Part shown: piece after piece, positions 11,057 through 62,242 of the stretch | Position numbering within the stretch: the stretch's first letter is position 1 | Layout: each line of letters begins with the position of its first letter | Source of the DNA: an uncultured Thiohalocapsa sp. | Lineage (GTDB): Bacteria; Pseudomonadota; Gammaproteobacteria; Chromatiales; Chromatiaceae | NCBI GenBank assembly: GCA_964524185.1 | Contig: CAZGCI010000010.1 | Coordinates: 520-64,519 of the forward strand | Length of the DNA: 64,000 bases | Direction: 5' to 3' | Translations under genes and position numbers: made by a program | The notes under the pieces: model-generated | What the model was told of the DNA's origin: nothing | Database searches by the model: none | What the model saw: only the letters and a program-made list of their open reading frames with translations

Positions 11057-11060
<4 letters not shown>
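9096..11060 (+). CDS. Long-chain acyl-CoA synthetase (AMP-forming, FadD/ACSL-like)
   Basis: AMP-binding motifs LVYTSGTTGPPKGVMLSH, TEGYGLTE, GWLHTGDVG, KLKR. GTG 9102 with GGAGG upstream is an equally likely start. Confidence 0.85.
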
Positions 11061-13993
<2,933 letters not shown>

Positions 13994-17860: not shown

Positions 17861-17918
17861 GCGAGAGGGGTCGCCGTCATGCACCGCCGCCGCGGATGTG
17901 TCCGTGGTTAGGGGCTGG

Positions 17919-18059
17919 CCGCAAATAACCTGTGCAGATTGCGCCGCAATTGCGTTCGCTTTCGCGAAGCGGCGAGGGGCGCATAGCCGGGCTATGTAAG
18001 CCTCGCCGCGACAAAGAAAGCGGGCGAAAGTGCAAGCAAGGTGTGCAGGTTATTTGCGG
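17919..18059. repeat. 141-bp imperfect palindrome between convergent genes (REP/MITE-like element or bidirectional terminator)
   Basis: Arms CCGCAAATAACCTG (17919-17932) and CAGGTTATTTGCGG (18046-18059). Inner arms GCGGCGAGG (17969-17977) and CCTCGCCGC (18001-18009). Centre CATAGCCGGGCTATG (17982-17996). All are symmetric about 17989. Confidence 0.6.
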
Positions 18060-18166
18060 ACGGTCCCTTAGCGCGTGGCCCGCGCCCGCGCCGGCGACGC
18101 CCCTGGATGCCGCGACAGAGCCTCGGCCGATCCGCTGATCATGAAGGCCAGCGCCGGCGGCATCGG

Positions 18167-24086: not shown

Positions 24087-26033
24087 TCAGTGGATCGCCG
24101 GCCGCCAGCGCCGCCGCCAGGCCTGGAACATCAGGATGACCCAGAGCCGGTACTGCCAGTCCACCCGCCCAGTCAGGTGCTCGGCCCAGAGCGCCCGGAT
24201 GGGGCCAGGCGCGAGCAGGCCATCCTCCGCCAGTGCGCGCTCGGACAAGAGGTCTTCGGCCCACTCACGCAGCGGGCCCCGCAGCCACTCGTCCACCGGC
24301 ACGCCGAAGCCCATCTTCGGGCGCTCGATGAGCGCCCTTGGCACGTAGCGAAACAGGAGCTGCCTGAGCAGCCACTTGGTCTCGCCGTCGCGCACTTTGA
24401 ACCGTTGCGGCAGGCGCCAAGCGAATTCCACGACGCGATGATCCAACAGCGGCACCCGAGCCTCCAAGCTCACGGCCATGCTCGCCCGGTCCACCTTGGT
24501 GAGGATGTCGTCGGGCAGATAGGTGAGCATGTCCACGAGCTGCATGCGATCTGTGAGGTCCGGCAGCGCGGCGTGGGTCTCGTTCCGCCAGAGGGGCGAC
24601 TCCGGCTCCGTACTGCCCGGTACCAATTTCGCCGGGTCCGGCCATTGTGCTACCAGTTCACGGTAGAGCTTGAGCTCCATCGTCGGGTCCAACAGCATCG
24701 CCGCCCGCGCAGCCCGGTCACCGAGCAGCCGGCCGCCGCGACCGGCGGTGAGTAACCGGCCGAGCCCGGCGTACCATGCCGGCGGGACCGTGCGCAGACC
24801 GGTCGCAAGCCCCCGGCGCAGCCCGGGCCGCAGCCCCTGCACCCGCCCGAGCAACTGCCGAGCGCGCGCATAGCGGTTGTAGCCGGCGAAGAGCTCGTCG
24901 CCCCCGTCACCAGAGAGGGCGACGGTGACATGCTGGCGGGTCAGCTCGGAGACGAGAAAGGTCGGGATCTGCGAGCTGTCGGCGAAGGGCTCGTCGTACC
25001 ACTCGGGGATATCTGGGATCACCTCCAACGCGTGGCCTGGCTCGACGTACAGCTCGTGGTGCTCGGTGCCCAGGTGTGCCGCGACCCGCCGGGCGTGCTC
25101 CGCCTCGTTGTAGCGGGCTTCGTGAAAGCCGATGGAGTAGGTCTTCACCGGCCGCGCGCTCTGGGCCTGCATCAGCGCCACCACCAGGGAAGAGTCGATG
25201 CCGCCGGACAAGAAGGCGCCGAGCGGCACGTCCGCCAGCATGCGCCGGCGCACCGCGTCCCGCAGCAGGGTGTCGAGCTGGTCGGCGGCCTGGCCATCAT
25301 CCAGGTCCAGCGGGTCGGCGACAGCGGCGGCGGCGATGCCCTGCAGAGTCCAGTAGCAGCGTTCGTTCACGCGCCCGCCGCTGTCGATCACAACCATGTG
25401 CCCAGGCGACAATTGGCGCACGTTGTGATAGATACTGCGCGGCGCGGGCACATACCCGTAGCGCAGGTAGGCGGCAAGGCTGTCGCGGTCCAGTTCCCCA
25501 CGCCAGGCCGGATGCTGCGCCAGGCTGCGCGGCTGCGAGCCGAACAGCACCACGTCACCGAAGCGCCCGTAGTACAGCGGCTTGATACCGACGCGGTCGC
25601 GCATCAGCGTCAGCGTGCGCTCCTCCCGATCCCACAGCGCGATGGCGAACATACCGATGAACCGCTCCACCGCGCGCGCCGCGCCCCAGGCAGCACAAGC
25701 CTCGAGGACCACTTCGGTGTCGGAATGGCCGCGAAACCGCACCCCTCTAGCAGCGAGCTCAGGGCGCAGGTCGTCGCTATTGTATACCTCACCGTTAAAG
25801 ACGATCATGTAGCGCCCGTCTGCGGAGGCCATGGGCTGTCGTCCCGCCGCCGTGAGATCCCGGATCGCGAGCCGTCTGAAGCCGATTGCTATGCCCGCAC
25901 CAGCGTCCACCCAGGTATGTTCGTCGTCAGGACCACGGGGTGTCACTGAGGCGGTCATGCACCGGACCCTACGCTCTGCCTCCGAGGTAACGAGCAAAGC
26001 GGTTGGATCCAAAAAACCGGCGAAGCCACACAT
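24087..26033 (-). CDS. asnB: Asparagine synthase (glutamine-hydrolysing) family amidotransferase
   Basis: MCGFAGF N-terminal nucleophile Cys2. SGGIDSS PP-loop. 648 aa, full length. Confidence 0.9.
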   Translation of the reverse strand: MCGFAGFLDPTALLVTSEAERRVRCMTASVTPRGPDDEHTWVDAGAGIAIGFRRLAIRDLTAAGRQPMASADGRYMIVFNGEVYNSDDLRPELAARGVRFRGHSDTEVVLEACAAWGAARAVERFIGMFAIALWDREERTLTLMRDRVGIKPLYYGRFGDVVLFGSQPRSLAQHPAWRGELDRDSLAAYLRYGYVPAPRSIYHNVRQLSPGHMVVIDSGGRVNERCYWTLQGIAAAAVADPLDLDDGQAADQLDTLLRDAVRRRMLADVPLGAFLSGGIDSSLVVALMQAQSARPVKTYSIGFHEARYNEAEHARRVAAHLGTEHHELYVEPGHALEVIPDIPEWYDEPFADSSQIPTFLVSELTRQHVTVALSGDGGDELFAGYNRYARARQLLGRVQGLRPGLRRGLATGLRTVPPAWYAGLGRLLTAGRGGRLLGDRAARAAMLLDPTMELKLYRELVAQWPDPAKLVPGSTEPESPLWRNETHAALPDLTDRMQLVDMLTYLPDDILTKVDRASMAVSLEARVPLLDHRVVEFAWRLPQRFKVRDGETKWLLRQLLFRYVPRALIERPKMGFGVPVDEWLRGPLREWAEDLLSERALAEDGLLAPGPIRALWAEHLTGRVDWQYRLWVILMFQAWRRRWRPAIH

Positions 26034-31873: not shown

Positions 31874-32944
31874 ATGAGTTCTGCACCCCTACAGTCGCCG
31901 ATCATGGTCATTGGCGCCGGACGATCGGGCTCGACTCTGATCTCCCGCATGCTCGACGCACACAGCGCCATTGACTTTAAAGGTGAGACTAGCTTTTTGT
32001 TGCTACGTCTCTGGGTGGAGGTGTGGCACGATCGATTCTGGCTTAATTGGCCTCGCCATGTCGCTGCACGACCGCACTCTGCAGCCGCGCCTGTGCCACA
32101 CATGCCTCCCAACGAGCTAGCGACGGAACGAGCCCGTGTCGGTAAGCTCGTCGCAGAAATGATAGTCCGTTTGTTGCGCGTGCAACGTGAGGACCGTCGC
32201 TTCTGGGGTTATAAAGAGCTCTGGAGCGGCTTGTCGCAATACAACCACGACTGGAGCGCGTACGATGCAGTTTTGCCCGGCGCCCATTGGCTGCATCTCG
32301 TTCGGCATCCGTTTGACTTTGCCCGCTCCTGTGCCGCTTGGAATGGCACACTGCTGACCCGCGACTATTTGGAAGCGAGGCTTTCCAACTGGGTCGACAT
32401 GGTCGAATGCAACCGCCGACGCATTGACACGGGGCGTTACCATGAAATTCGCATGGAAGATGTTGCTCGCAAACCAGAAGAAACGTTAGATCCCATACTG
32501 AGTGAGCTAGGACTTGGTTGGGAGTCCGCAATGACCACGGCTCTGGGCAAGAAGACAATGGCTTCGGATCAACACACGGATGACGAGACAGCGTCGCTAT
32601 CCTCGAATGAGATCAACATGTTGATTGACCAAATCCCGGGGTTGGCCGAAGCTATGAACTTATATTGCTACACTGCACCGCAGCGGGTGCTACTGAGCGC
32701 TCAGACTCGAGCGGAATCGTCGGTCGACCTTCGTGACCCGGAGAATGAGCAGAAGGGCGCGTTTTTACCACGTCACGTCCTGGAAGCGCAGCTGCACACC
32801 GCCCGCTCTGCCCTATCGGAGCTGACCGGGATGGCCTCCCAGGGCGGGTTTGGTCCGCACAAATCCATTAAAGTTGAGCCAGCCGAGGCATTCCAACGGG
32901 TTCGCTCGGTGTTGGCGAAACTCACCGAGGCCCTCAAGCAATGA
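31874..32944 (+). CDS. Sulfotransferase family protein
   Basis: N-terminal PAPS 5'-phosphosulfate-binding loop IMVIGAGRSGSTLISRML. A later RHPFDFARS region. Confidence 0.72.
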   Translation: MSSAPLQSPIMVIGAGRSGSTLISRMLDAHSAIDFKGETSFLLLRLWVEVWHDRFWLNWPRHVAARPHSAAAPVPHMPPNELATERARVGKLVAEMIVRLLRVQREDRRFWGYKELWSGLSQYNHDWSAYDAVLPGAHWLHLVRHPFDFARSCAAWNGTLLTRDYLEARLSNWVDMVECNRRRIDTGRYHEIRMEDVARKPEETLDPILSELGLGWESAMTTALGKKTMASDQHTDDETASLSSNEINMLIDQIPGLAEAMNLYCYTAPQRVLLSAQTRAESSVDLRDPENEQKGAFLPRHVLEAQLHTARSALSELTGMASQGGFGPHKSIKVEPAEAFQRVRSVLAKLTEALKQ

Positions 32945-32990
32945 TGCTTCGGCGGCTATTGATTCCCGAACGCAGCAAACCGACAACCCC

Positions 32991-34838
32991 ATGTGCGGAA
33001 TAGCAGGCATCGTCTGCCAGTCACGGATTTTCGATTCTGACCAGCTCAAGCGCATCGTCACCGATATGCGCGACCAGATGGTGCATCGGGGGCCGGATGA
33101 CGCCGGCGTCTGGGTAGACCCGGACGGCGGCTGTGCGCTCGCACACCGCCGACTGTCGATCATCGACCTATCGGCCGAGGGGCGCCAGCCGATGGGCAAT
33201 GAGGACGGTTCAGTCCAGGTCACCTTCAACGGCGAAATCTATAACTTTCAGGCCCTGCGCGACGAGTTGATCCGCAAGGGGCATCGGCTGCATTCGCAGA
33301 CCGACTCTGAGGTACTACCGCATCTGTTCGAGGCAATGGACCCGGCGCGCCTTCATGACCTCGACGGCATGTTCGGTCTTGGAATCTGGCACCGGGAGCG
33401 CCGCCGCCTGCTGCTTGCGCGCGATCCGTTCGGTAAGAAACCGCTCTACTTCGCAAAAGGACGGGGCTGGTTCGCGTTTGCGTCCGAGCTGCAGGCACTT
33501 ACGCGCGTCCCGGGGTTCGACCCGGCGATCGACCGCGACGCGCTGTCTCTGTACCTGCTGCTCCAATATGTGCCGGCGCCGTTCAGCATCTATAGCGCCG
33601 CCAGGAAGCTAACGCCGGGGTCCTATCTGGAGCTCGATCTCGCCGACGGGCAAGCCGTTGAGGGGACTCCGAGACGTTGGTTTCAGTTCGAAGCCGTCGA
33701 GCCGCCGTCGCTGGGCGGACCATCGCTCGACGAGCGCATCGAGGAACTGCGACCGCTTATCCTGTCGGCAGTCCGGAAGCGTCTGATCAGTGACGTGCCG
33801 CTCGGGGCTTTCCTGTCCGGCGGAGTCGACTCTGGACTCGTCGCGGCAATGGTGACGCAAGAGCTCGGCGAACCGCTGAAGACCTTTTCCATCGGCTTCG
33901 CTGGGACCAATGAGAGTGAGCACCAGTATGCGCGTGAGGTCGCCCACCACCTCGGCACGGAGCATCATGAGGACCTGCTGCAGCCGGACGCACTGCAGCT
34001 CGTGCATGAGATCGCCGGTCGGCTCGATGAGCCAAATGGAGATTCGAGTTGTCTGCCCACCTACCTACTCTGCCGCTACACCCGCGAACATGTGACCGTA
34101 GCGCTGTCCGGGGACGGCGGCGACGAGCTGTTCGGCGGCTACGGGCGTTACCGAGACACGCTCAACGAGTACGGCAGCCGGCTCGACCGGCTCAAGCGCA
34201 TGTTCCGCAGCCGGCGCCCTTACCAACCTGCGGACGGTTATCTGTCACCGCGCTGGCTAATGTTCCAGCCCGAGCAGGTGGATACTCTGGTCGGCGGTTT
34301 GTCGCCGACGGTGCGAAACATCCTCCATGACTGGCGCGAGCGCCTCAATGACCAGCGCAAGCCCCTGTTGCACCGGATGCGGAATTTGGACGCCGAAACT
34401 TATATGCCCGGCGCCGTGCTGGCCAAAGTCGACCGAATGAGCATGCAAGTGGCGCTTGAGGTGCGGTGTCCGTTGCTCGATCGGCACGTGGCCGCCTATG
34501 CGCAGGGCCTCCCCGCCTCCGCCTGCTGGCGACCGCCGGCCGAAACCAAACGACTGCTGAAGGCATTGACCGCTCGCTACCTGCCGCGCAACTGGATCGA
34601 CCGCCCCAAGATGGGTTTTGGGCTCCCGTCCAACGCCTGGTCCAAGGACGCAATGCTCACGCTGGCTCGCGAATTGCTAACCGGTACGGATAGCCGACTC
34701 GGTCAGCTGCTTGTACCAGGAAGCCTGAGCGCCGTGATCGAGAAGCAGGCGCAGCCCGGCTGCTTCTCGATCTACCAGCTTTGGCCGCTTCTCATCATGG
34801 AGCTTTGGCTGCGTAAGATCGCAGATCACCACCTATGA
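32991..34838 (+). CDS. asnB: Asparagine synthase (glutamine-hydrolysing) family amidotransferase, second copy
   Basis: ATG 32991 gives MCGIAGI. SGGVDSG PP-loop. The longer ORF start at 32850 overlaps the sulfotransferase gene and is rejected. Confidence 0.9.
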   Translation: MCGIAGIVCQSRIFDSDQLKRIVTDMRDQMVHRGPDDAGVWVDPDGGCALAHRRLSIIDLSAEGRQPMGNEDGSVQVTFNGEIYNFQALRDELIRKGHRLHSQTDSEVLPHLFEAMDPARLHDLDGMFGLGIWHRERRRLLLARDPFGKKPLYFAKGRGWFAFASELQALTRVPGFDPAIDRDALSLYLLLQYVPAPFSIYSAARKLTPGSYLELDLADGQAVEGTPRRWFQFEAVEPPSLGGPSLDERIEELRPLILSAVRKRLISDVPLGAFLSGGVDSGLVAAMVTQELGEPLKTFSIGFAGTNESEHQYAREVAHHLGTEHHEDLLQPDALQLVHEIAGRLDEPNGDSSCLPTYLLCRYTREHVTVALSGDGGDELFGGYGRYRDTLNEYGSRLDRLKRMFRSRRPYQPADGYLSPRWLMFQPEQVDTLVGGLSPTVRNILHDWRERLNDQRKPLLHRMRNLDAETYMPGAVLAKVDRMSMQVALEVRCPLLDRHVAAYAQGLPASACWRPPAETKRLLKALTARYLPRNWIDRPKMGFGLPSNAWSKDAMLTLARELLTGTDSRLGQLLVPGSLSAVIEKQAQPGCFSIYQLWPLLIMELWLRKIADHHL

Positions 34839-40131: not shown

Positions 40132-40149
40132 CCAAATACCTCGCGAAGC

Positions 40150-40360
40150 GCTGCCTCAGGCCGACGAGCGACGGGGCGCCGGCACGTCGGTAGCTCGTTC
40201 ATGGGCAAGGGCCGATGGCCAAGGGCCAAGGGCCGAGGAGCGGACTCGCACCCCTGGCATCAGCGGTTATGCCTTGGCCCTTCCCCTCGCCGTCGCCTGG
40301 CACAACACGCGTCGCCGAGAACTTAACGCATCCGCAAACATCTGGCCCGGCGAAGCAATC
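40150..40360 (-). repeat. Copy A of a ~210-bp structured intergenic repeat (sense orientation taken as the minus strand)
   Basis: The reverse complement aligns by eye along its whole length with 62022..62226. Shared blocks include GATT(G/A)CTT, CCAGAT(G/A)TTTGC(G/A)GATGCG, GCCAGGCG, GGGGAA(A)GGGCC, AACCGCT, GTGCCGGCGCCC, GTCGCTC, CTGAGGCA. Confidence 0.6.
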
Positions 40361-40457
40361 GACTTCCTTTTGGGCGAGAGCGGATCAGGTCGCGTCGGCC
40401 AGCCCCCTGTGCCAGGCTAGCACGCACTTGCAAGATCAGCGGCAGATGACGGTGAGA

Positions 40458-40469
40458 CACGCTACCGCC
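40458..40469 (-). promoter_or_regulatory. Exact 12-nt match to the ops element GGCGGTAGCGTG (RfaH-recruitment-type site)
   Basis: The minus strand reads ACGGGCGGTAGCGTGTCT. The TAG inside the motif is the stop codon of the epimerase gene 40462..41451. It is in sense orientation within the minus-strand polysaccharide operon. Confidence 0.35.
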
Positions 40470-41451
40470 CGTTGTTGGGCTCAGGCCGATGGGCATCCGC
40501 TGTCGCTACCATCTCGTCGACGACGGCGAAGAAATTCTGCTGCGGCCGCCAGGACAACTCCGCGCGGAGCCGATTGGCTCGGTAGCAGGCCGAGCCGCGC
40601 AGGCGCGCGAGCGCTAGGGACGAAAACGGCATGGGCCGGCCCGCGGTGCGCCCGAGCAGATCCGCAGCCCGCGCCCCCGACTCGAGCAGCCACATCGGCA
40701 GCGACCAGGATGGCGGCCTTCGACCAAGCGCCTGGCAAATGGCCAGATACAGCTGCCGGGTCGAGTAGTCCACCCCGTCCGCAACAATATACACACGCCC
40801 CTTGGCCGCCTCTGTCGTCATCGCCAGCCAAGCGGCCGCGACTAGGTCAGACACCGACACCATGGAGCGCCGGTTATGCGACTCGGGCAACGGCGGGAAG
40901 CGACTGCAGGCCACCGCGTCGACCATCCGCCGCAGATTGCCTTTCACACCGGGCCCATAGACCAGCGTCGGGCGCAGGACGCTCCCGTGCAGACCCTGCT
41001 CTGCGGCGGCCAGGACCAATTGCTCCGCGGCGCGCTTGGATTGCCCGTAGACGTCCGCCGGCGGCGCATCCCAGGTCTCGTCGACACAGTCCTCGCCGGG
41101 TTCTGCAGCCGCCTTGACGCTGCTGAAGTAGACAAACCGGCCGACGCCGGCGGCCGCGGCTGCCTCGAGGAGCAACCGCGTCCCGTCGACATTGAGTTGC
41201 CAATAAGAGGCGTCCTCGGTGCCGCTTTCGTCCGGCACGTGGGCCAGCCCAGCCAAATGGAAGATGCCGTCGATACCGGCACACGCATCGGCCGGTACGC
41301 TGCCATTGGCCAAGTCGCAGACCACGCGTTCCTGCCAGGGGCCCAGAGCATCATGATGCAAGAGCGCGCGGACGCGGCAGCCGTGCTCCGCCAGCAACCG
41401 GCACAGGGCATGCCCAACGAAGCCGTTCGCACCGGAGACCAGATAGTGCAT
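40462..41451 (-). CDS. NAD-dependent epimerase/dehydratase (SDR family)
   Basis: MHYLVSGANGFVGHAL Rossmann motif and YGQSK catalytic motif. Confidence 0.85.
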   Translation of the reverse strand: MHYLVSGANGFVGHALCRLLAEHGCRVRALLHHDALGPWQERVVCDLANGSVPADACAGIDGIFHLAGLAHVPDESGTEDASYWQLNVDGTRLLLEAAAAAGVGRFVYFSSVKAAAEPGEDCVDETWDAPPADVYGQSKRAAEQLVLAAAEQGLHGSVLRPTLVYGPGVKGNLRRMVDAVACSRFPPLPESHNRRSMVSVSDLVAAAWLAMTTEAAKGRVYIVADGVDYSTRQLYLAICQALGRRPPSWSLPMWLLESGARAADLLGRTAGRPMPFSSLALARLRGSACYRANRLRAELSWRPQQNFFAVVDEMVATADAHRPEPNNGR

Positions 41452-46292: not shown

Positions 46293-49200
46293 ATGTTTCA
46301 AAACATGGGCAATCAACAAGGCAGCGCCTGTCAGAACTTCGCTCGCAACGCCACCGTGCGAGCACTGCTGCTGATTGCTGTAGCGGCCTCACAAACAGCC
46401 GTCGCAAGGACGGACCCGATTACGCAAGACCACCCACTCTGGACAGTGATGCGCGGCACGGCCACCGTCGACGGCGTACTCGATGTCGGAGAGTGGTCGG
46501 GCGCAATCCCCATCAGACGGAGCCAGCCCTGGCGCGACGGCGCCGTGGTGGTCCGTGCCATGTTCGATGACCAGGGCATCTACCTCAGCGCGGACGTGGA
46601 GGACGATCAACTTTACGCCGATGGCAATGGGGGCGGGAGCGGGAACCGTTGGGAGGTCGAGAGTGATGACTCCATCACTTTCTACTTTGACCCCGACGAG
46701 AGCCGGCATGAGTATTTCACCAGCGCCGACCGTGCATTCGGCGTGAACCTGGGTAACCCCGCGGACCCGATCAACGGCCCCGGCGTGGTCCGACGCTGGA
46801 AATACGTGCAGGGAAATGGCAGCGGCGGCGCACCCGACGTCCTGCCGGGCGGCGCTCCGGCGACGGGCATCCGCTGGGTCACCGTCGCCCGTGGCTCGGT
46901 GAACGATAACCGCGACCAGGACGAAGGCTGGACTACTGAAATCTTCCTGCCTTGGAACGCCCTCAACCGCGCAGCCCCGTCCCATGGCGAGACCATGGGC
47001 ATGAACTTCGACGTCATCTTCGATAACGACGGCGGCCCACGCAACTTTGTCGACAACCGCCACAGCGATCAGCGCTTTGTGCTGCCCGCCTTCGTCGACG
47101 ATCACATCCTGGGCGCCCACAGCAGCTTCCACGCGAGCCTCGGCGGCATCCGAGGACCAGTCAACTACGCGCGCGCCATGTTTTTCGACCCCGCAAGTGG
47201 CACGCGCCCGTCAGCCGTCCGGAACCTGTCAGTCTCTTCGCCGTCCGCCTACGGCGCCGTGCTCGAATTCACCGCGCCGACCGGCACGGCAACCGGACGC
47301 GGCCAAGCACAGGGCTACGCTATCCGCTACAGCCGGGCGCCGATCACCACGGAGGCCGATTGGGCCGCTGCGGAGGTACTAGAGAATGCGTATAGGGCTC
47401 GCAGACCGGGCGCCCAGGAACGGTTGCGTCTCATCGGCCTCTCGCCGAACACGACTTACCATGTGGCAGTTCGCGCCGTGGACGCCGCAGGCCGGCTCGC
47501 CCCCTTATCGAACGACGCCAGCTTGCGCACCGCCCCGGCTGCTGCAGCACAGCGGGGACGCATCGTGCCATCACCCGGCGGTACCTACCTGCTCTTTGAA
47601 GACGGCACACCCTTCGTACCCGTTGGCGAGCATCTTGGCCTGAGTTGGGCCTACTTCCGCAACCTGTTCCCCGGTGATGTCTGGGACCCGGTGAACCGAA
47701 AGTTCCAGAACTACGCGGCGGAACCGTCCTATGAAGGGGCGGCCGGCCCTTACCTTGACGATCTGCAGTCGTTGGGCGTCAACACGCTGCGGGTCTTCCT
47801 CGAGGTCCTGGGGCTCGACCAAACAGGCAATCCGCAAGTCCCGCGTGGCCGTTACTGGCTCGAATATCCGGCAGGTACATTCAATCCGGACGCACGGCAA
47901 TTTATTCTGAATTTGCTCGAAGAGGCAGCGGCTCGGAATATCTACCTGATATTCTCGCCCTTCGACACCTTCGTCTGGGACGACGTCTTCTGGGAAGAGA
48001 CGCCGTGGGCCATCGCCAACGGGGGGCCGCTGACCGATATCAACGATTTCTTTCAGGACTCGCGGACCTTGGACATGGCCAAGGAGCGGATGCGCACATT
48101 GATCTCTTGGGTGCGGGAGAGCCCCCATGCCGATCACCTCATCGGTTGGGAAACCCTCAACGAGTGGGATTCCTATGAATGGACGCTGAATGCAGAGGGC
48201 GATGGCGAGCCAGGTCGAGAAACCGAAATGCGTCGTCGGGTGCAATGGGTGCAAGCCCTGAACGACTTTGTCAGGCAGCAGGACCCCGATCGCTTAGTCA
48301 TCTCCAGCACCACGTCCCGCGACCCCCGAGGACCCGTTGCACGAGCGCTGTTCTACGACCGGTCTTTTGATGTTCTCGCGCCGCACTTCTATACCACCAG
48401 CTCAGAAGAGCCGATCAACAACCCCGACGCCGACCGCTCCGTGCGCCCCGCGCTGGAGGTCGGGCGCCTGACGGCCTATTGGTTGACCCACCAAGACCAC
48501 GTCGCACCCCTCCTCAATGGCGAGTGGGGCATGACGCGCCACCTTTGGCCTGGGGCCTGGCCGAGCTACGGCCCGCGGTTCTCCCAGGGGGAGGACAATG
48601 TCATGTATCGCGCGGTGACCTGGAGCGGACTGGCCAGCGGCCAGGCCGGGCAAGGGCTGCGCATCGCCACCGAAGAGCTCATCTTCAACTGTCACAGCCT
48701 GACCGACGGTAGCAATCAGCTACCCGTGAAGTGCCGCGGCGATGACAGTGTCGACCCGGCTGCAGGCGCAGTCGTCCGCGAGGGCAGCATGAGAGATGTG
48801 CAGCAGACGCTGGCCCGTCAGGTTGCTGCCCAAGCCGTCGCCGACACGCCGCTCACCCCGGGCGGTGCCCCATTCTTGACCAACGTGCGCGCAGAAAGCG
48901 CAGGCAAGCAGCTGCACGCCTGGGCTTTCGGTGGCGCGGACGCGGGCCTGGGTTACATCCTGCTCGACGGCAACGTCAGCGCAGGGCCGGCACAGAGTGC
49001 TCGCCTCCGGCTGTTCGGTTTGCAAAGCGGTGCGCGCTACTCCGTCGCGTTTTGGGCAACGACCGGCAATCGCAATGCGCCTGTCAGCGTGATCAATGGA
49101 CAGATTGCCCGCGGGAGCGAGCTCTCCGTGGACTTGCCTACGTTCGCGAAGGATCTGGCCTTCGGTTATCAGCGCATGAGCGCACCCGTTGCGCTGCCGT

Positions 49201-50660
49201 TAGACGACGACGGAGCGGCAAGTGCCCCCGGGGAGATTGCCCCCGGTGAGCTTGACGCTTGGTCATTCACAGCCATCCACCCCGGAAACACCGTCATTAC
49301 CGTTGCGGTCGGCACCGGCTTGACCATTTCTGTGTATGACGAGCAGGGCAACCTGATTGCGCAGGGCTCCGGCGGCAGCCTAGTATTTCCAGCCGTCGCC
49401 GGGGCCCGCTACGACATCCTCGTCGAGACAACGGGCGCCGGCGGCCCCTACAGGCTGGAAATCTCGAATCCGCCACCAGTCGCCGGCACCAACGTCTTCA
49501 CGGCCACCCCCGGCGGCCACGTCAACACCGCGGCAAGCGCGGGCGGCGTAGTCGTCGCCGCCACGCTCAATGCCGACAACGATGTCGTCGTCTTCATCGA
49601 CGAGGACGGCCACAGCGGCTGGGGCGCCAAGGTGCTCACCAAGGACATCCCCGGCCCTTCACCGTCGGGCATGCCGGTCACCTTCGTCGACCCCAAGGAC
49701 GGCGTCATCTCCGTCGCCTATCCCTCCACCAGCGGGCTGATGCTCTACCGCCGCGCGGCCGATGGCAGCTGGACGCTGAGCAACTTGACCGGCGCCGGCC
49801 AGAGTCCCATCAGCAAGCAGCTCGCCTGGTTCATTTCTCCGCCGGCGGGCGGCGCGTACGGGGTGCCCGCGGGGGAGGCCGATCTGATCAGCCTGGTCGG
49901 CCTCAATCCGGCCGATGAGGTGGTCAAGTATGCCCAACGGCGCAGCGGCGGCGGTGTGACCTGGGAGTTCGCCAATCTCACGACGCGCGATTTCGCGCCC
50001 AACGGCCAGCTCCCGCCGGGCTGGGTCGGCGAGCCGGTTGGCTACACCACGCCGTGGAACGGGCAGAACGTCGCCGGGCTGAATGCCTTCGGGGAGGTGG
50101 TGGTGGCCTGGGGCGAGCCCCGCAGCCGCTGGTCTGTCAGCAATCTGTCGGACTTCACCCCCACCCCGCCGCTCTCCGGCGGCCTGTCGGCCTATGTCAA
50201 TTGGGGCATCAACCTCACCGGCATCCTCGCCGATGGCAGCCTTGGGGTGACCTGGTGGAGCGCGGAGTATGAGCAGGCGCAGCGCGCCCGCGGCAGTGAG
50301 CAGAACTGGGCCTTCACTAACCTCACCGCCGTTGCCGAGGGGCTACGCCCGCGCCTCGGCGGCGATGCGGTGGTGGGCTTCACCACGCCGAACTGGATCA
50401 GCAACAACATCTACGGCATCGCCCAGGACTCCGGGCACCTGGTCGCCTATTGGTGGGCGCCCGGCCAACCCTGGAACTCCGCCGATCTGAACGAACGCCT
50501 CACCGGCTCCGAGGTGCCCACCGGTAAGCTCACCGCGGTGGCCGCCCGCGATAACAGTATCTCGGTGTTCGGCGTCAACGCCGAAGGCGAGGTGCTGCGC
50601 TTCTTCTGGCAGCCCGATCAGTGGCGGTTTGAGAATGTCAGCCGACGGGTGGCGCAGTGA
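46293..50660 (+). CDS. Large secreted multidomain glycanase: signal peptide, CBM9-like, Fn3-like, GH5/clan GH-A-like, PPC domain and C-terminal 7-repeat propeller-like module
   Basis: Hydrophobic N-terminus ending AVA. CBM9-like DGVLDVGEW ... FDDQGIYLSADVEDD ... DSITFYFD. Fn3-like segment. WETLNEWD and LLNGEWGM (clan GH-A acid/base and nucleophile contexts). PPC-like GELDAWSF ... YRLEIS. Seven ~50-aa repeats at the C-terminus. Confidence 0.82.
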   Translation: MFQNMGNQQGSACQNFARNATVRALLLIAVAASQTAVARTDPITQDHPLWTVMRGTATVDGVLDVGEWSGAIPIRRSQPWRDGAVVVRAMFDDQGIYLSADVEDDQLYADGNGGGSGNRWEVESDDSITFYFDPDESRHEYFTSADRAFGVNLGNPADPINGPGVVRRWKYVQGNGSGGAPDVLPGGAPATGIRWVTVARGSVNDNRDQDEGWTTEIFLPWNALNRAAPSHGETMGMNFDVIFDNDGGPRNFVDNRHSDQRFVLPAFVDDHILGAHSSFHASLGGIRGPVNYARAMFFDPASGTRPSAVRNLSVSSPSAYGAVLEFTAPTGTATGRGQAQGYAIRYSRAPITTEADWAAAEVLENAYRARRPGAQERLRLIGLSPNTTYHVAVRAVDAAGRLAPLSNDASLRTAPAAAAQRGRIVPSPGGTYLLFEDGTPFVPVGEHLGLSWAYFRNLFPGDVWDPVNRKFQNYAAEPSYEGAAGPYLDDLQSLGVNTLRVFLEVLGLDQTGNPQVPRGRYWLEYPAGTFNPDARQFILNLLEEAAARNIYLIFSPFDTFVWDDVFWEETPWAIANGGPLTDINDFFQDSRTLDMAKERMRTLISWVRESPHADHLIGWETLNEWDSYEWTLNAEGDGEPGRETEMRRRVQWVQALNDFVRQQDPDRLVISSTTSRDPRGPVARALFYDRSFDVLAPHFYTTSSEEPINNPDADRSVRPALEVGRLTAYWLTHQDHVAPLLNGEWGMTRHLWPGAWPSYGPRFSQGEDNVMYRAVTWSGLASGQAGQGLRIATEELIFNCHSLTDGSNQLPVKCRGDDSVDPAAGAVVREGSMRDVQQTLARQVAAQAVADTPLTPGGAPFLTNVRAESAGKQLHAWAFGGADAGLGYILLDGNVSAGPAQSARLRLFGLQSGARYSVAFWATTGNRNAPVSVINGQIARGSELSVDLPTFAKDLAFGYQRMSAPVALPLDDDGAASAPGEIAPGELDAWSFTAIHPGNTVITVAVGTGLTISVYDEQGNLIAQGSGGSLVFPAVAGARYDILVETTGAGGPYRLEISNPPPVAGTNVFTATPGGHVNTAASAGGVVVAATLNADNDVVVFIDEDGHSGWGAKVLTKDIPGPSPSGMPVTFVDPKDGVISVAYPSTSGLMLYRRAADGSWTLSNLTGAGQSPISKQLAWFISPPAGGAYGVPAGEADLISLVGLNPADEVVKYAQRRSGGGVTWEFANLTTRDFAPNGQLPPGWVGEPVGYTTPWNGQNVAGLNAFGEVVVAWGEPRSRWSVSNLSDFTPTPPLSGGLSAYVNWGINLTGILADGSLGVTWWSAEYEQAQRARGSEQNWAFTNLTAVAEGLRPRLGGDAVVGFTTPNWISNNIYGIAQDSGHLVAYWWAPGQPWNSADLNERLTGSEVPTGKLTAVAARDNSISVFGVNAEGEVLRFFWQPDQWRFENVSRRVAQ
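49506..50609 (+). repeat. Copy 1 of a 1104-bp nucleotide-identical direct repeat (encodes the C-terminal propeller-like module)
   Basis: Offset is exactly 3872 nt to 53378..54481. Translations are identical in all listed forward and reverse frame ORFs. Both junctions were read directly from the sequence. Confidence 0.93.
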
Positions 50661-50823
50661 AGGCCCACCGGGACGCGACACGGCACCAGTGCAGCTTAAA
50701 CTCAGAACATTTTATCCTGGACTTGCGGTCCCCTTCACTGCTCGCCAGGTGGGCAGACGTCCACCCGGCGCCAGCCTTCCTTAGTCCCTTACCTCCAAAA
50801 TCTTCGACAAACCGGTGAAGAGT

Positions 50824-51042
50824 TCAAATCGCCGCTCTGACCAGGGTAGGTTGCACGAAGTACTCGCGGATCACGAGTGCGGTGACGAAGACGCGGCGGC
50901 CGAGCTTGGTGAAGAAGTAGTTGTAGGTGTGAGCGACCTTCTTGATCAGGCCGTGGGTACGCAGGCGCTTGATCAGGTAGGAGGCGCGGGCGGGCGTGAG
51001 CCCTGCGATGTGGGCGCGCAGGTCGCCGGCGCACTGTTGATC
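50824..51042 (-). pseudogene. Fragment resembling the C-terminal HTH tail of a DDE transposase (family unassigned)
   Basis: The last ~72 aa of ORF 50824..52107 read LTPARASYLIKRLRTHGLIKKVAHTYNYFFTKLGRRVFVTALVIREYFVQPTL. Upstream of this, the reading frame runs antisense to the IS630-like fragment. Confidence 0.35.
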
Positions 51043-51044
51043 GA

Positions 51045-51700
51045 CGATGACACGGGGCGTGCCCACTTCAAGCGCTACAAGGCGGGCGGCATCTCGGCGC
51101 TGGAGCGCATGAACGACGTCGGCAGCGAGGCGCTGCTCAGCGCCGCGCAGCTGGCCGAGTTGGATGCGCACCTGCAGCAGCAGCTGCATACAAGCGTCGA
51201 CTCGGTGGCGCGTTGGGTCGACGCGTGCGTTGGCACAGGGGGCCGTGCACGACACCGACAACGGCATGACCGCGCTGCTGCGTCGCCTCGGGTACCGCTT
51301 TAAGATGCCCAAGGTGCTGCCGGGCAAGGCGCCTGATCCCGAGGTGCAGGCAGCCTTCGTCGCGGCCTGCCGAACGCGCAAGGACACCAAAGGTGAGCAC
51401 AACGCTATCCTATTCGTGGACGCCACCCACCCGCAGCACAACCCGTTCCTCGCCGGCGGCTGGATCAAGCGCAGGCGCTGCTTCGCGGTTAAGAGCAACA
51501 CCGGTCGGCGACGCTTGAATATCAACGGTGTCATCGACGTTGAAACGCTGCACGCGGTGATCCGCTGCGACGAGACGTTTGCCGTGTAAAGGGCCGCCTG
51601 CAAGCAGTTCTTCGCGGATCTCGACGCGCATGCCGCGCACTTGCGCTCGCTGCTGACCAATAACGTCGAGATCATCTGCAGCGATTGAAACCCGCAAAGC
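51045..51700 (+). pseudogene. IS630-family transposase remnant (N-terminally truncated, frameshifted, internally deleted)
   Basis: HFKRYKAGGISALERMNDVGSEALLSAAQLAELDAHL (HTH part) lies in one frame. LLRRLGYRFKMPKVLPGKAPDPEVQAAFV ... ILFVDATHPQHNP ... NINGVID (DDE part) lies in another frame. Premature stop at 51589, then a short C-terminal-like piece QFFADLDAHAAHLRSLLTNNVEII. Confidence 0.7.
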
Positions 51701-51841
51701 TCTATCGGTTGGACATAATGACCACGTCTTCGACCATGAGCGCCGGGGGGCTGCACCGATAGCGAGCCGTCGTCGGGATGGCGGTAGCTCCAGCAGACGC
51801 CCCCGTCACCCCTGCATTCAGAAAGAGAAATGGAACGATAC

Positions 51842-54532
51842 ATGACCAAAAGAATCGATCGGATCATCGGCTTTGCAGCGGCACTCAGTGTGGCCGTGGC
51901 GCCATCCTTTGCGGGCGGCGACTCCGGTGCCGCCGTGCAAGACCTGCCGTGGCGGGACGCTTCCGGCGGCATCTCAATGCCCGGCGCATTCAGTCCCGAG
52001 ACGGCGCAGCCGCAGACCCGCGGGATGCGTGCCGATGCACTGTCGCAGGATGCCCAATTTTGGCAGCTCGAGACCATTCGCGACCAACTCCTGGCGGTGA
52101 CGGCCACCCCGGCAGCGGACCTCTATGAACAAATGCTGGCGGAGCGGGCCAAAGACCCGAGTGTCATCGGCATCGGCGTGGACGTGCCGGAACTAAACAC
52201 CGTGGCCGCGACCCAGGCCAGCTTCGTCTCATTCGACGCCATCGACGGCGGCAGACTTCTCGCCCTGCGCATCCGTGCACCCGGAGCGGTGGGGATGCGG
52301 CTCGGTCTTCTCGTCGAACAGATGCCCACGCAAGTGAGTGTCGCTTTTGCCGATGTGGCTGGCAATGAACCGGTTGCGCCACCGGTGACGGGTGCAGAAA
52401 TCACGCGGATCATCGAGACCAACCAGGCCGCCGGCGACCTATCGGACGAGGGTCGGACTTACTGGAGCCCGATGCTGGAGGGGGAAGAGGCGCTCATCCT
52501 GATTCATGTGCCGCATGGTGTGGAAGCTGACGCTGTGCGATTCAGCATCCCCCGGATCAGCTACATCTTCGAGGATCCTCTCAGCAATCAGTCGATCGAG
52601 CTGTTCCAATCCAAGGTCGCGGCCCAGTCGGCGGCTTCCTGCAATCTCGACGCGACCTGTTCCCCAGATTGGAACGTCGAGAGCCAGGCAGTCGCTCACA
52701 TGGTCTACACCGTGAATGGCGCGTCGCGTTGGTGCACCGGCTCTTTGATCAACGACAGCGATCCGTCTGGCTTCGTTCCCTATTTTCTGACCGCCAACCA
52801 CTGCATTTCGACCCAGACCGCTGCCTCGACACTTCAAACCCACTGGTATTTGCAATCGGCGGCCTGCAACAGCTATGTTCTAGACCCAAGGTACACGATC
52901 GTAAACGGAGGTGCGCGGCTCTTGTACGCCAGCGCAGCGATGGATACCGCATTGCTGCGCCTGAACCAGTCGCCTCCGGGAGGCGTCTACTACCTGGGCT
53001 GGTCGACCGCCAACCCCTTACTCTTCGACGACGTCGTCGGCATCCATCACCCTCAAGGAGACCGGAAGAAGATCAGCGCCGGGGAGTTTGTTGGATTTGG
53101 CGATTGCTGGAGCACCACAGGAAGTGGCTTCCAATGCAGCCCTGCCTCAAGTACGACCGGAAATTACCTTAACATCGATTGGTATGCTGGAACCACAGAG
53201 GGCGGCAGCAGTGGGTCGGCCCTGCTGAATGCGAGCGGGCAAGTGATCGGCACTCTTTGGGGCGGTAACGGTTTATGCGCTCCCTACGGTAACAGCAATT
53301 ACGGGCGTTTTTCCGCAGCCTACGCTGACGGCCTCAAGGATTGGCTCAACCCACCGCCTCCCGGGACCTACACCTCGACCCCCGGCGGCCACGTCAACAC
53401 CGCGGCAAGCGCGGGCGGCGTAGTCGTCGCCGCCACGCTCAATGCCGACAACGATGTCGTCGTCTTCATCGACGAGGACGGCCACAGCGGCTGGGGCGCC
53501 AAGGTGCTCACCAAGGACATCCCCGGCCCTTCACCGTCGGGCATGCCGGTCACCTTCGTCGACCCCAAGGACGGCGTCATCTCCGTCGCCTATCCCTCCA
53601 CCAGCGGGCTGATGCTCTACCGCCGCGCGGCCGATGGCAGCTGGACGCTGAGCAACTTGACCGGCGCCGGCCAGAGTCCCATCAGCAAGCAGCTCGCCTG
53701 GTTCATTTCTCCGCCGGCGGGCGGCGCGTACGGGGTGCCCGCGGGGGAGGCCGATCTGATCAGCCTGGTCGGCCTCAATCCGGCCGATGAGGTGGTCAAG
53801 TATGCCCAACGGCGCAGCGGCGGCGGTGTGACCTGGGAGTTCGCCAATCTCACGACGCGCGATTTCGCGCCCAACGGCCAGCTCCCGCCGGGCTGGGTCG
53901 GCGAGCCGGTTGGCTACACCACGCCGTGGAACGGGCAGAACGTCGCCGGGCTGAATGCCTTCGGGGAGGTGGTGGTGGCCTGGGGCGAGCCCCGCAGCCG
54001 CTGGTCTGTCAGCAATCTGTCGGACTTCACCCCCACCCCGCCGCTCTCCGGCGGCCTGTCGGCCTATGTCAATTGGGGCATCAACCTCACCGGCATCCTC
54101 GCCGATGGCAGCCTTGGGGTGACCTGGTGGAGCGCGGAGTATGAGCAGGCGCAGCGCGCCCGCGGCAGTGAGCAGAACTGGGCCTTCACTAACCTCACCG
54201 CCGTTGCCGAGGGGCTACGCCCGCGCCTCGGCGGCGATGCGGTGGTGGGCTTCACCACGCCGAACTGGATCAGCAACAACATCTACGGCATCGCCCAGGA
54301 CTCCGGGCACCTGGTCGCCTATTGGTGGGCGCCCGGCCAACCCTGGAACTCCGCCGATCTGAACGAACGCCTCACCGGCTCCGAGGTGCCCACCGGTAAG
54401 CTCACCGCGGTGGCCGCCCGCGATAACAGTATCTCGGTGTTCGGCGTCAACGCCGAAGGCGAGGTGCTGCGCTTCTTCTGGGTGCCCGATCAGTGGCGGT
54501 TTGAGAATGTCAGCCGGCAGGTCGCGCGTTGA
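51842..54532 (+). CDS. Secreted S1-family serine endopeptidase (lysyl-endopeptidase-like) with N-terminal pro-region and C-terminal 7-repeat propeller-like module
   Basis: ATG 51842 gives signal peptide MTKRIDRIIGFAAALSVAVAPSFA. Catalytic contexts FLTANHC (His), MDTALLRL (Asp), TEGGSSGSAL (Ser). The C-terminal ~368 aa are identical to those of 46293..50660. Confidence 0.85.
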   Translation: MTKRIDRIIGFAAALSVAVAPSFAGGDSGAAVQDLPWRDASGGISMPGAFSPETAQPQTRGMRADALSQDAQFWQLETIRDQLLAVTATPAADLYEQMLAERAKDPSVIGIGVDVPELNTVAATQASFVSFDAIDGGRLLALRIRAPGAVGMRLGLLVEQMPTQVSVAFADVAGNEPVAPPVTGAEITRIIETNQAAGDLSDEGRTYWSPMLEGEEALILIHVPHGVEADAVRFSIPRISYIFEDPLSNQSIELFQSKVAAQSAASCNLDATCSPDWNVESQAVAHMVYTVNGASRWCTGSLINDSDPSGFVPYFLTANHCISTQTAASTLQTHWYLQSAACNSYVLDPRYTIVNGGARLLYASAAMDTALLRLNQSPPGGVYYLGWSTANPLLFDDVVGIHHPQGDRKKISAGEFVGFGDCWSTTGSGFQCSPASSTTGNYLNIDWYAGTTEGGSSGSALLNASGQVIGTLWGGNGLCAPYGNSNYGRFSAAYADGLKDWLNPPPPGTYTSTPGGHVNTAASAGGVVVAATLNADNDVVVFIDEDGHSGWGAKVLTKDIPGPSPSGMPVTFVDPKDGVISVAYPSTSGLMLYRRAADGSWTLSNLTGAGQSPISKQLAWFISPPAGGAYGVPAGEADLISLVGLNPADEVVKYAQRRSGGGVTWEFANLTTRDFAPNGQLPPGWVGEPVGYTTPWNGQNVAGLNAFGEVVVAWGEPRSRWSVSNLSDFTPTPPLSGGLSAYVNWGINLTGILADGSLGVTWWSAEYEQAQRARGSEQNWAFTNLTAVAEGLRPRLGGDAVVGFTTPNWISNNIYGIAQDSGHLVAYWWAPGQPWNSADLNERLTGSEVPTGKLTAVAARDNSISVFGVNAEGEVLRFFWVPDQWRFENVSRQVAR
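53378..54481 (+). repeat. Copy 2 of the 1104-bp nucleotide-identical direct repeat
   Basis: See copy 1. Identity starts at ACCCCCGGCGGCCAC and ends at CTTCTTCTGG, after which CAG versus GTG differ. Confidence 0.93.
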
Positions 54533-54582
54533 CCGGCCAGCTAGGCGACAATGCCGATCTTTGCAACCGGAGCGCAAGCGAC

Positions 54583-55551
54583 ATGAGCGACAGTCCGCAG
54601 ATTCAACTCCCGATCAGCGACGCGCTCGGCGACGCGGCCATGGGCGCCTATGCACAGTGGGTGCAGGCACTCCCGGAAGAGGTCGCCTACTGGCGGGGTT
54701 ACATCCGCAGCCGCGGTGGCGCGTATCCCGATGACTTCGCCTACCGGCTGCGCCAGGACACCCTGGTCCAGGATCGTGATCCGGTGCTCGCCGGGACCCT
54801 CACTGCCCTCGGCCCCAAAGACCTACGGCTGCTCGACGTGGGCGCAGGCCCGTTGACCAACCTGGGCAAGCAGGTGCTTGGCAAGCGCCTGACGATCTAC
54901 CCCTGCGATCCCCTCGCCGACGCCTACGGCTGGCTGTTGCAAGAGGCGAGCGTGCGACCGCCCGTCGGCACGCTGTTCGCGGACGTCGAGAATCTCTCGA
55001 TGTACTTCCCGCGCGACAGCTTCCATGCAGTGCATTGCGCCAATGCGCTCGACCACACCTACGACCCCCTCGGCGGCATCCTGGAGATGCTCAAGGTGCT
55101 CCACCCCCGGGGCGTGATCCACCTCGGCCATTTTGAGAACGAGGCCGAGCACGAAGGCTATGGCGGCCTGCACCAATGGAACCTAACGGAGCGGGACGGC
55201 GATTTTGTGCTGTGGAATCGCCGCGAGGAGATCTCCCTGCGCAGCATCGGCGCAGAGGCGCTGGACATCCATGCGCGGCGCTTTCCGCTGGAAGGCGGAC
55301 GCCAGTGGATCTTGGTGCAAATCCGCAAGCGCTCGAGCCTCCTGGAGTGGCTCGGTAAGCGCTCAAAGGTCGACGCCCTGTATGCACTGCGACCGCCCAA
55401 TCTGCCGGCAAAATATCGCACCCTCCTGGCAGACGGTCTGCGCCGCGCGCTCACCGCGATTGAATCGCCTGTGGGATCTGACGTACCCGAGGACACGCCC
55501 GACGTGCCTGAGGATACGTCGACCTCGCCTGAGCCTGAGGTTACCCCCTAA
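54583..55551 (+). CDS. Class I SAM-dependent methyltransferase
   Basis: ATG 54583. LRLLDVGAGPLTNLG motif I and FHAVHCANALDHTYDP. Acidic PEDT repeat tail. Confidence 0.72.
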   Translation: MSDSPQIQLPISDALGDAAMGAYAQWVQALPEEVAYWRGYIRSRGGAYPDDFAYRLRQDTLVQDRDPVLAGTLTALGPKDLRLLDVGAGPLTNLGKQVLGKRLTIYPCDPLADAYGWLLQEASVRPPVGTLFADVENLSMYFPRDSFHAVHCANALDHTYDPLGGILEMLKVLHPRGVIHLGHFENEAEHEGYGGLHQWNLTERDGDFVLWNRREEISLRSIGAEALDIHARRFPLEGGRQWILVQIRKRSSLLEWLGKRSKVDALYALRPPNLPAKYRTLLADGLRRALTAIESPVGSDVPEDTPDVPEDTSTSPEPEVTP

Positions 55552-57806: not shown

Positions 57807-58268
57807 ATGAGTGCAGCCCTGGAACTCTATACACGATTGACCGAGGCGCCCGACGACAAGACGCGCGCGCGACTTATTGCCGACGCCTTCGACGCCCTGG
57901 AGGCCCGGTTTCCGCAGATCACGGACCTCGCCACACAGGGCCATGTGCGCGAGAGCGAGCTGCGGCTGCAGAAAGAGATCAAGGAGGTCGAGGCGCGGCT
58001 GCAAAAAGAAATCAAGGAAGTCGAGGCCCGGCTGCAAAACGAAATCAAGGCCGTCGAGCTGCAGATTCGTGAGGTCGAGGCCCGACTGCAACAAGAGATC
58101 AAGGCCATCGAGCTGCAGATACAAGACGTCGCGGCTGGGCTCCAAGAACGCATCGCACGGGTCGAGGTCAGTCTGCACCAAGCCATGGCGGCCCAGACGC
58201 GTTGGCTGCTAGGCGGCCTCGCGGTGCTGGGCGCCGTGTTCAAGCTGGCGGATCTGTTGATTGGCTAG
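57807..58268 (+). CDS. Coiled-coil membrane-anchored protein, DUF1640-like
   Basis: 153 aa. N-terminal helical region, RLQKEIKEVEA-type 11-aa repeats, and a C-terminal TM helix WLLGGLAVLGAVFKLADLLIG. Confidence 0.68.
   Translation: MSAALELYTRLTEAPDDKTRARLIADAFDALEARFPQITDLATQGHVRESELRLQKEIKEVEARLQKEIKEVEARLQNEIKAVELQIREVEARLQQEIKAIELQIQDVAAGLQERIARVEVSLHQAMAAQTRWLLGGLAVLGAVFKLADLLIG
57957..58130 (+). repeat. In-frame 33-bp tandem repeats (4 full units plus two 21-bp partial units) inside the coiled-coil gene
   Basis: Full units at 57957-57989, 57990-58022, 58023-58055 and 58077-58109. GAGCTGCAGAT-type partial units at 58056-58076 and 58110-58130. Confidence 0.85.
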
Positions 58269-62021: not shown

Positions 62022-62226
62022 GATTACTTGACCGCGCCAGATATTTGCAGATGCGCCAAATTTCCCACGCGCCGTCGTATGCCAGGCGCCGGCAGGGGAA
62101 AGGGCCGAGCGCCGGAGCGCAACCGCTAACGCCAGGACTGTGCATCCGCGCCCTGGCCCTCGGCCCTGGCCAGTGAGCGACCCGATGGCGTGCCGGCGCC
62201 CTCGTCGCTCATCGGTCTGAGGCATC
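62022..62226 (+). repeat. Copy B of the ~210-bp structured intergenic repeat (sense on the + strand, upstream of glf)
   Basis: Aligns by eye with the reverse complement of 40150..40360. Contains hairpins AGGGCCGAG/CTCGGCCCT and TGAGCGAC/GTCGCTCA. Confidence 0.6.
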
Positions 62227-62242
62227 GCCTCGCTACTCATAG

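Follow-up and report, generated by a model that had tools for sequence, protein, structure and literature searches.

We analysed a 64,000-nucleotide (nt) stretch of contig CAZGCI010000010.1 from an uncultured Thiohalocapsa sp., called the window throughout, in which two genes encoding predicted secreted enzymes end in the same propeller module. One encodes a glycanase and the other, downstream on the same strand, a protease; the interval between them contains insertion sequence (IS) debris, and a methyltransferase gene follows the protease gene. At their 3' ends, the two enzyme genes share a tract that is identical at every position. This arrangement is probably the outcome of two events of different ages, in which an older in-frame fusion made a chimeric protease and a very recent gene conversion then homogenised the two propellers.

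The identical tract, its tails and a relative's contigs

Direct sequence comparison found the two copies of the tract (Table 1) to be the same over exactly 1104 nt, at an offset of 3872 nt. The identity is not extendable by even one base in either the 5' or the 3' direction. Both copies lie in direct orientation, 3.9 kb apart, at the 3' ends of the glycanase and protease genes. Repeat searches and a self-BLAST returned this pair as the sole long repeat of the window, and two copies of the propeller module were all that tblastn detected there. On the 3' side of the tract, 51 homologous nt lead to each stop codon and contain seven mismatches; the peptides encoded by these tails are QPDQWRFENVSRRVAQ and VPDQWRFENVSRQVAR. 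Beyond both stop codons the sequences are unrelated, as is the DNA 5' of the tract. The first-pass annotation of this DNA, made from its sequence, had reported the identity, the offset, the unrelated upstream DNA and the divergence of the last ~50 nt, all of which are borne out by our comparison.

With an even distribution of seven differences along the 1155 nt of homology, all of them would fall within the last 51 nt with a probability of P = 3e-10, which excludes chance as the cause of their clustering at one end. The repeat as a whole is a mosaic and not uniformly young sequence. Purifying selection alone was considered as the cause of the 1104-nt identity and ruled out, since synonymous positions are identical as well.

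Two short contigs from one Joint Genome Institute (JGI) metagenome, L002 and L003, represent a relative whose DNA is about 85-88% identical to that of the window. L003 is 88.0% identical to window positions 51832-53371, after which it encodes a DUF4214 domain in place of the propeller. L002 encodes a complete protein of 515 amino acids (aa), comprising a signal peptide, an RHS/YD repeat, TSP3 repeats and a propeller. It aligns with window positions 53380-54706, through the protease-side tail and into the methyltransferase gene, and over the tail and the downstream methyltransferase gene the two sequences are 87.6% identical. The next called gene in L002 (1714-1890) begins 4 nt before the stop codon, so that neighbour and overlap are the same as in the window. 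Such a 4-nt overlap in both organisms suggests that the propeller and methyltransferase genes have long been linked in an operon.

To judge from these alignments, the tail of the protease gene, together with the methyltransferase gene downstream, is the positional orthologue of the relative's small YD/TSP3-propeller gene. Considering that the protease of L003 ends in DUF4214 and that L002 is orthologous to the protease 3' end, the protease gene of the window is a chimera joined at 53371/53372. Copy 2 and tail 2 would therefore occupy the ancestral position of a small lectin-type gene whose 5' part was replaced by the protease. Comparison with close relatives had been proposed in the first-pass annotation as a way of finding the ancestral state; in this relative, the protease ends in DUF4214 and the propeller beside the methyltransferase gene belongs to a separate YD/TSP3 gene. 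The tails also differ in their affinities. At the five 3'-most of the seven sites that discriminate between them, tail 2 agrees with L002 and tail 1 differs from it, so that tail 1 belongs to a separate paralogous lineage.

The joint itself can be followed closely. The blastn alignment of L003 to the window ends at 53371, and the encoded proteins read NPPPPGTY-DWQV (DUF4214) in the relative and NPPPPGTY-TS-TPGG in the window. The joint is in frame and lies at a domain boundary of both parents. When four junctions were compared side by side, the six bases preceding the tract were ACCTCG in the protease gene, ACGGCC in the glycanase gene and GCCTCC in L002; the ACCTCG that follows the joint thus resembles the sequence at the corresponding place in L002. 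No coding remnants of DUF4214 or of the YD/TSP3 region were detected with tblastn anywhere in the window. Along the tract, similarity to L002 is uneven, ranging from 76 to 92%. Differences from the relative within the module number 90 at third codon positions against 46 and 34 at the other two, an excess indicating that the propeller module is under purifying selection. Metagenome scans with single-sequence and alignment queries gave no matches, hence no glycanase orthologue of the close relative was recovered.

The two enzymes, the interval and the propeller module

Table 1. Features of the glycanase-protease locus, in window positions.
Feature	Position	Strand	Description
Glycanase gene	46293-50660	+	Open reading frame (ORF), 1455 aa; signal-peptide-like N-terminus, C-terminal propeller
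CBM9-like domain of glycanase	46536-47042	+	Pfam CBM9_1
fn3 domain of glycanase	47211-47513	+	Pfam fn3
GH5/cellulase-like catalytic domain of glycanase	about 47751-48536	+	Pfam Cellulase PF00150
PPC-like module of glycanase	about 49128-49505	+	~100 aa directly before propeller; label without confirmation
Identical tract, copy 1	49506-50609	+	Residues 1-368 of propeller module: blades 1-6 and most of blade 7
Tail 1	50610-50660	+	Last 16 codons and stop of glycanase gene; encodes final strand of blade 7
Winged-helix protein fragment	50833-51027	-	Only tblastn match is annotated as an ArsR-family regulator, 44.6% over 65 aa, E 9e-7
IS630-family transposase pseudogene	51058-51589	+	Frameshifted and truncated; includes start of catalytic domain
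HTH_32-like region	51058-51228	+	Weak Pfam match below cut-off; one of two frames
HTH_33-like region	51257-51361	+	Weak Pfam match below cut-off; other of two frames
Protease gene	51830-54532	+	ORF, 900 aa from 51830; 896 aa from ATG at 51842
Trypsin-like S1 domain of protease	52733-53251	+	Pfam Trypsin_2 E 3.2e-13 and Trypsin E 1.3e-5, both above cut-offs
Fusion joint	53372-53377	+	Orthology to L003 ends at 53371; ACCTCG follows; tract from 53378
Identical tract, copy 2	53378-54481	+	84.4% identical to lectin gene of relative (L002)
Tail 2	54482-54532	+	Orthologous to tail of relative's YD/TSP3-propeller gene; 47/51 nt identical to L002
Class I methyltransferase gene	54529-55551	+	Pfam Methyltransf_11; longest ORF overlaps protease stop codon by 4 nt

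The glycanase label of the first-pass annotation agrees with a Pfam Cellulase/glycoside hydrolase family 5 (GH5) match above the curated cut-off, obtained when the central region was scanned alone. PF00150 was absent from the output of the whole-protein scan and was reported only for residues 401-820 taken by themselves (E 2.7e-8, 34.1 bits against a cut-off of 23.5). Precomputed PF00150 assignments exist for many homologues of this protein. The sequence contains the motifs LNEW and GEWG, which may represent the GH5 acid/base and nucleophile glutamate motifs. Directly upstream of copy 1, the first-pass annotation had placed a PPC domain, a name that finds no support in Pfam or in PDB sequences: a Pfam scan of residues 946-1071 at E <= 0.05 gave no hit, including to PF04151, and a PDB sequence search with the pre-propeller region gave no meaningful match. 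This module of ~100 aa is homologous to one found twice in the homologue P0018.

The 115 glycanase homologues were mostly from Phycisphaerae, and 89 of them carried the propeller. A GH5-like glycanase family of ~1300 aa, known chiefly from that class, usually has the propeller at its C-terminus. One homologue, P0282, is colinear with the window glycanase over the entire architecture, with 53% identity in the N-terminal part and 66% in the propeller; on most other homologues, the propellers are 39-43% identical in protein to that of the window. Another homologue, P0280, has unrelated genes around it; location of the glycanase in a polysaccharide cluster is thus not a general feature. The best named relatives of the glycanase are in Phycisphaerae, and those of the protease and of the IS630 remnant are in Chromatiaceae (Chromatium, Allochromatium).

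The protease comprises a signal peptide, a lysyl-endopeptidase-type N-domain, an S1 domain, the linker NPPPPGTY and the propeller. A precomputed assignment to PF27052 (Lysyl_endopep_N) exists both for P0160, which is the product of the window gene itself, and for the orthologue P0161. The motifs TANHC, DTALL and GGSSGS (His/Asp/Ser) were found in the sequence, and the Trypsin_2 match agrees with the S1 protease label given in the first-pass annotation. Of the top 120 homologues of the protease, the window protein itself is alone in bearing the propeller; the C-terminal domains of the rest are DUF4214, SLH, fn3, PPC or Ig-like. Set against 89 of 115 glycanase homologues, this single occurrence in 120 proteases indicates that the glycanase had the propeller ancestrally and that its presence on the protease is an isolated case. 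An alternative start of the methyltransferase gene that follows is an ATG located 18 codons downstream.

The interval between the two enzyme genes had been described as carrying two decayed transposase fragments. Instead, we found one IS630-like pseudogene split over two frames and, on the minus strand, a fragment whose match is annotated as an ArsR-family regulator. Over 295 nt (51244-51538), the pseudogene is 72% identical at the nucleotide level to a gene annotated as an IS630 transposase in Allochromatium vinosum. No intact IS630 transposase gene was detected, only this decayed remnant, and no search was made for terminal repeats. The minus-strand fragment had no Pfam match. It was rejected as a second transposase because its sole match is to the ArsR-family annotation. 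A promoter and terminator scan of the interval gave no match. Because these remnants are decayed, they should be older than the conversion, and a role for the IS debris in bringing the protease segment here is possible.

The shared C-terminal module spans 384 aa (49506-50657 and 53378-54529) and matched no Pfam family at E <= 0.01. An AlphaFold2 model, built from a 15-sequence alignment, has 28 strands that form seven four-stranded blades, with a predicted local distance difference test (pLDDT) value of 89.3 and a predicted template modelling (pTM) score of 0.89. In a Foldseek search of the PDB, the top matches were PHL, PLL2-5, PLL and CV39L, with a best E of 1.5e-16, template modelling (TM) scores of 0.70/0.78 and 13-17% identity. 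A second tier consisted of AAL and AFL, six-bladed fungal fucose lectins, at E values of 1e-8 to 1e-10. A profile search of PDB sequences retrieved no lectin and returned cyclophilins instead; the alignment carried the N-terminal partner domains of some members, and the search was thus uninformative. Invariant or near-invariant tryptophans are distributed across the blades: W89, W153, W184, W202, W209, W233, W250/251, W268, W297, W316/317, W323 and W373. Lectins of the PLL family bind L-fucose and O-methylated sugars at inter-blade sites through tryptophan stacking (PMC6943638). Considering the modelled fold, the propeller may act as a multivalent carbohydrate-binding module that tethers both secreted enzymes to the same glycan. 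The targeting module of the first-pass annotation is thus sustained at the level of the fold, as a PLL/PHL lectin-like propeller, and its function is putative.

An exhaustive search at E <= 0.001 retrieved 516 cluster representatives of the module. Where the alignment reached the module end (214 hits), that end lay at most 20 residues from the C-terminus in 157. Partner domains include Peptidase_S8 (subtilases), FG-GAP, CAP, cyclophilin, SdrD_B, lipase-like domains and Lcl_C, and from these architectures the module appears to be a promiscuous appendage of secreted proteins. The module, noted also in proteins P0015-P0159, is a candidate for a family model of its own. A neighbour-joining tree places the window propeller with P0001 and P0002, followed by the glycanase-borne propeller of P0282, and the lineages of the two loci are not separated. 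An uncatalogued propeller family with the PLL-lectin fold, spread over this number of protein clusters, is the most useful by-product of the analysis.

Order of events and competing explanations

We favour an explanation in two steps. In the older one, the 5' 1.5 kb of a protease gene, whose closest orthologue ends in DUF4214, would have been joined in frame at 53371/53372 to the 3' portion, encoding the propeller, of a small resident gene of lectin type, located immediately upstream of the methyltransferase gene. In the second and very recent step, non-reciprocal homologous recombination would have copied one propeller over the other, in either direction, from the 5' edge of homology to 51 nt before the stop codons. 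All differences within the 1104 nt would thereby have been erased, with each gene retaining its diverged tail. The diverged, locus-specific tails imply that both propellers pre-existed the conversion, and tails with separate histories next to a shared 1104 nt argue for gene conversion between pre-existing paralogous modules. At its 5' end, the conversion tract would stop essentially where homology runs out. Homogenisation would leave both enzymes with exactly the same propeller specificity, as far as this can be predicted from the fold. Zero differences in 1104 nt place the upper bound of divergence at ~0.3%, compared with 12-16% from the relative, and we infer that the conversion took place within roughly the last 2% of the time since the split from that relative. 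The first-pass annotation had offered gene conversion or domain transplantation as the cause. Both recent conversion and domain shuffling are retained here; what we do not retain is their origin in one event, since the two appear to differ in age.

Several points weigh against this explanation or against parts of it. Tract boundaries, which the first-pass annotation had listed for testing, are well defined on the 3' side by the seven mismatches in 51 nt; on the 5' side, any diverged homology amounts to no more than 6 nt next to unrelated sequence, so that a flank of divergence is clear only 3'. The donor is not fixed by the comparison with L002, to which the tract is 84.4% identical as against 87.6-88.0% in the flanks; with a dip to 76-79% in the middle of the tract, a more complex mosaic history is possible. 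No second genome carries the protease-propeller chimera, which is known from one contig of 66,151 nt, nearly all of it covered by the window. Perfect identity may also have been overstated if near-identical copies were merged during assembly. For carbohydrate binding, the evidence is the fold, at 13-17% identity to the PLL lectins and with no sequence-level match.

A single recent transplantation would be a simpler account. The glycanase propeller would have been copied into the protease gene, replacing its former C-terminal domain, and the identity would date that event. The 5' end of the identity does lie only 6 nt from the end of orthology to the relative's protease-DUF4214 gene, and the propeller is an ancestral trait of the glycanase family that none of the other protease homologues examined possesses. 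However, one copy-and-paste event leaves unexplained why seven differences occur in the last 51 nt and none in the preceding 1104. The protease-side tail and everything downstream are, moreover, orthologous to the relative's separate propeller gene, from which it follows that a propeller of that locus's own lineage was already present at this end of the protease gene. A transplant out of the glycanase does not agree with this positional orthology, and we regard it as improbable. Repeated exchange among the genome's propellers, with the 1104-nt tract merely the latest and largest instance, would be a form of ongoing concerted evolution. The tails are 14% diverged, close to the 12-16% seen between species, whereas the propellers of most other glycanase homologues are 39-43% identical in protein (66% for P0282). 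The tree nests propellers regardless of the carrier gene, with P0282 a glycanase and P0002 and P0001 of other architectures, and similarity between the tract and L002 is uneven along its length. This uneven similarity and the tree fit repeated within-genome exchange as well as either direction of copying. Concerted evolution of this kind would nevertheless refine the two-event explanation rather than contradict it, and with one relative locus it is not separable from a scenario in which the common ancestor had recently duplicated the module. We consider it to have a low probability as a separate account.

Alternatively, the identity might be an effect of assembly, if near-identical copies (e.g. 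98-99%) were merged into one consensus used twice or if the order of segments is wrong. The source is a single contig, neither full protein has been observed a second time, and graph-based assemblers can collapse sparse variants inside repeats. Exact-sequence look-ups with both full proteins found no other contig, and a species-genome scan returned only a distant Phycisphaerales locus at 33% identity. Nevertheless, the assembler resolved the dense differences of the tails. All four borders of the tract adjoin unique sequence and must therefore exist in reads, and the assembled order would be the sole linear arrangement in which every unique segment occurs once. The joint between protease and propeller has no long stretch in common with either relative sequence from which a graph chimera could have arisen, and is in frame at a domain boundary, while the joint between glycanase and propeller is matched in the colinear homologue P0282. 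An assembly effect is thus unlikely. A few hidden differences would turn 'identical' into 'nearly identical', and recent homogenisation would stand.

The two-event explanation makes the locus a clear example of known processes and not a new mechanism. It shows how modular secreted enzymes are assembled and stay matched to each other: the contigs of a relative allow an in-frame fusion to be traced to a domain boundary with a precision of six bases, and a conversion tract free of substitutions came later. Current understanding of recombination or of lectins is unchanged by it.

The surrounding cluster and comparison with known systems

Both genes lie inside a large polysaccharide-biosynthesis cluster. 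Its genes encode glycosyltransferases of families GT1, GT2 and GT4, a Wzt-type ABC transporter, UDP-galactopyranose mutase, two asparagine-synthase-like proteins and a methyltransferase. We entertain, as a speculation of low probability, that the propeller is a self-glycan anchor for a possibly O-methylated polysaccharide made by this cluster, and that conversion was favoured because it keeps both enzymes on the same polymer. Three observations would fit such a role: in two organisms a methyltransferase gene accompanies the ancestral propeller gene in tight linkage, the Wzt-type ABC transporter of the cluster has a glycan-recognising C-domain, and PLL-type lectins bind O-methylated sugars. If this were true, the 1.1-kb direct repeats would constitute a recombination switch that could delete or amplify the 3.9-kb unit carrying the protease.

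Other features of the cluster were recorded alongside. The two asparagine-synthase-like paralogues are encoded on opposite strands (24087-26033, minus; 32850-34838, plus), and inside them lies an inverted repeat (25126-25232 and 33792-33898) with 76-78% identity. A second inverted pair of ~220 nt (40143-40360 and 62022-62233) is 69% identical; one arm overlaps the start of an ORF without a Pfam hit (40215-41117), and the other lies just 5' of the UDP-galactopyranose mutase gene. An intergenic inverted repeat of 40 nt (17903-17942 and 18036-18075), 75% complementary and with its arms 93 nt apart, adjoins a glycosyltransferase gene. The repetitive product of a small plus-strand ORF (57807-58268) resembles a coiled coil; it contains repeats such as EARLQKEIKEVEARLQ and ends in a hydrophobic tail. 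At 9096-13993 there are two adjacent genes for AMP-binding (acyl-activating) enzymes, the second fused to carrier-protein and acyltransferase domains, which hints that the glycan of the cluster, or a lipid, may be acylated.

Gene conversion and concerted evolution between bacterial paralogues are well known from tufA/tufB of Salmonella, rRNA operons and pilE/pilS of Neisseria. The window resembles these systems in having a tract of identity between paralogues within one genome, a diverged homologous border, clear here on the 3' side, and locus-specific flanks. It differs in that exchange is limited to one domain of two otherwise unrelated genes, one of which is itself a chimera. Glycoside hydrolases and proteases that bear carbohydrate-binding modules (CBMs) are likewise modular secreted enzymes with shuffled binding modules. 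They share with the window enzymes the arrangement of a catalytic domain, a Pro-rich linker and a sugar-binding module, and the occurrence of one module type on different enzymes. The module here is, however, a 384-aa propeller without a Pfam family and not a small beta-sandwich CBM.

Among lectins, the closest likeness is to the PLL family (Photorhabdus PLL, PLL2-5 and PHL; Chromobacterium CV39L), with which the module shares seven four-stranded W-motif blades of ~50 residues each and a richness in conserved tryptophans. PLL lectins are stand-alone proteins, whereas the window-type module is usually C-terminal on large multidomain secreted proteins; it is only 13-17% identical to them, with no sequence-level match in Pfam or the PDB. 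The fungal fucose lectins (AAL, AFL/FleA and AOL) are also propeller lectins with inter-blade sugar sites, but they have six blades instead of seven and match the module at a lower TM score of about 0.5.

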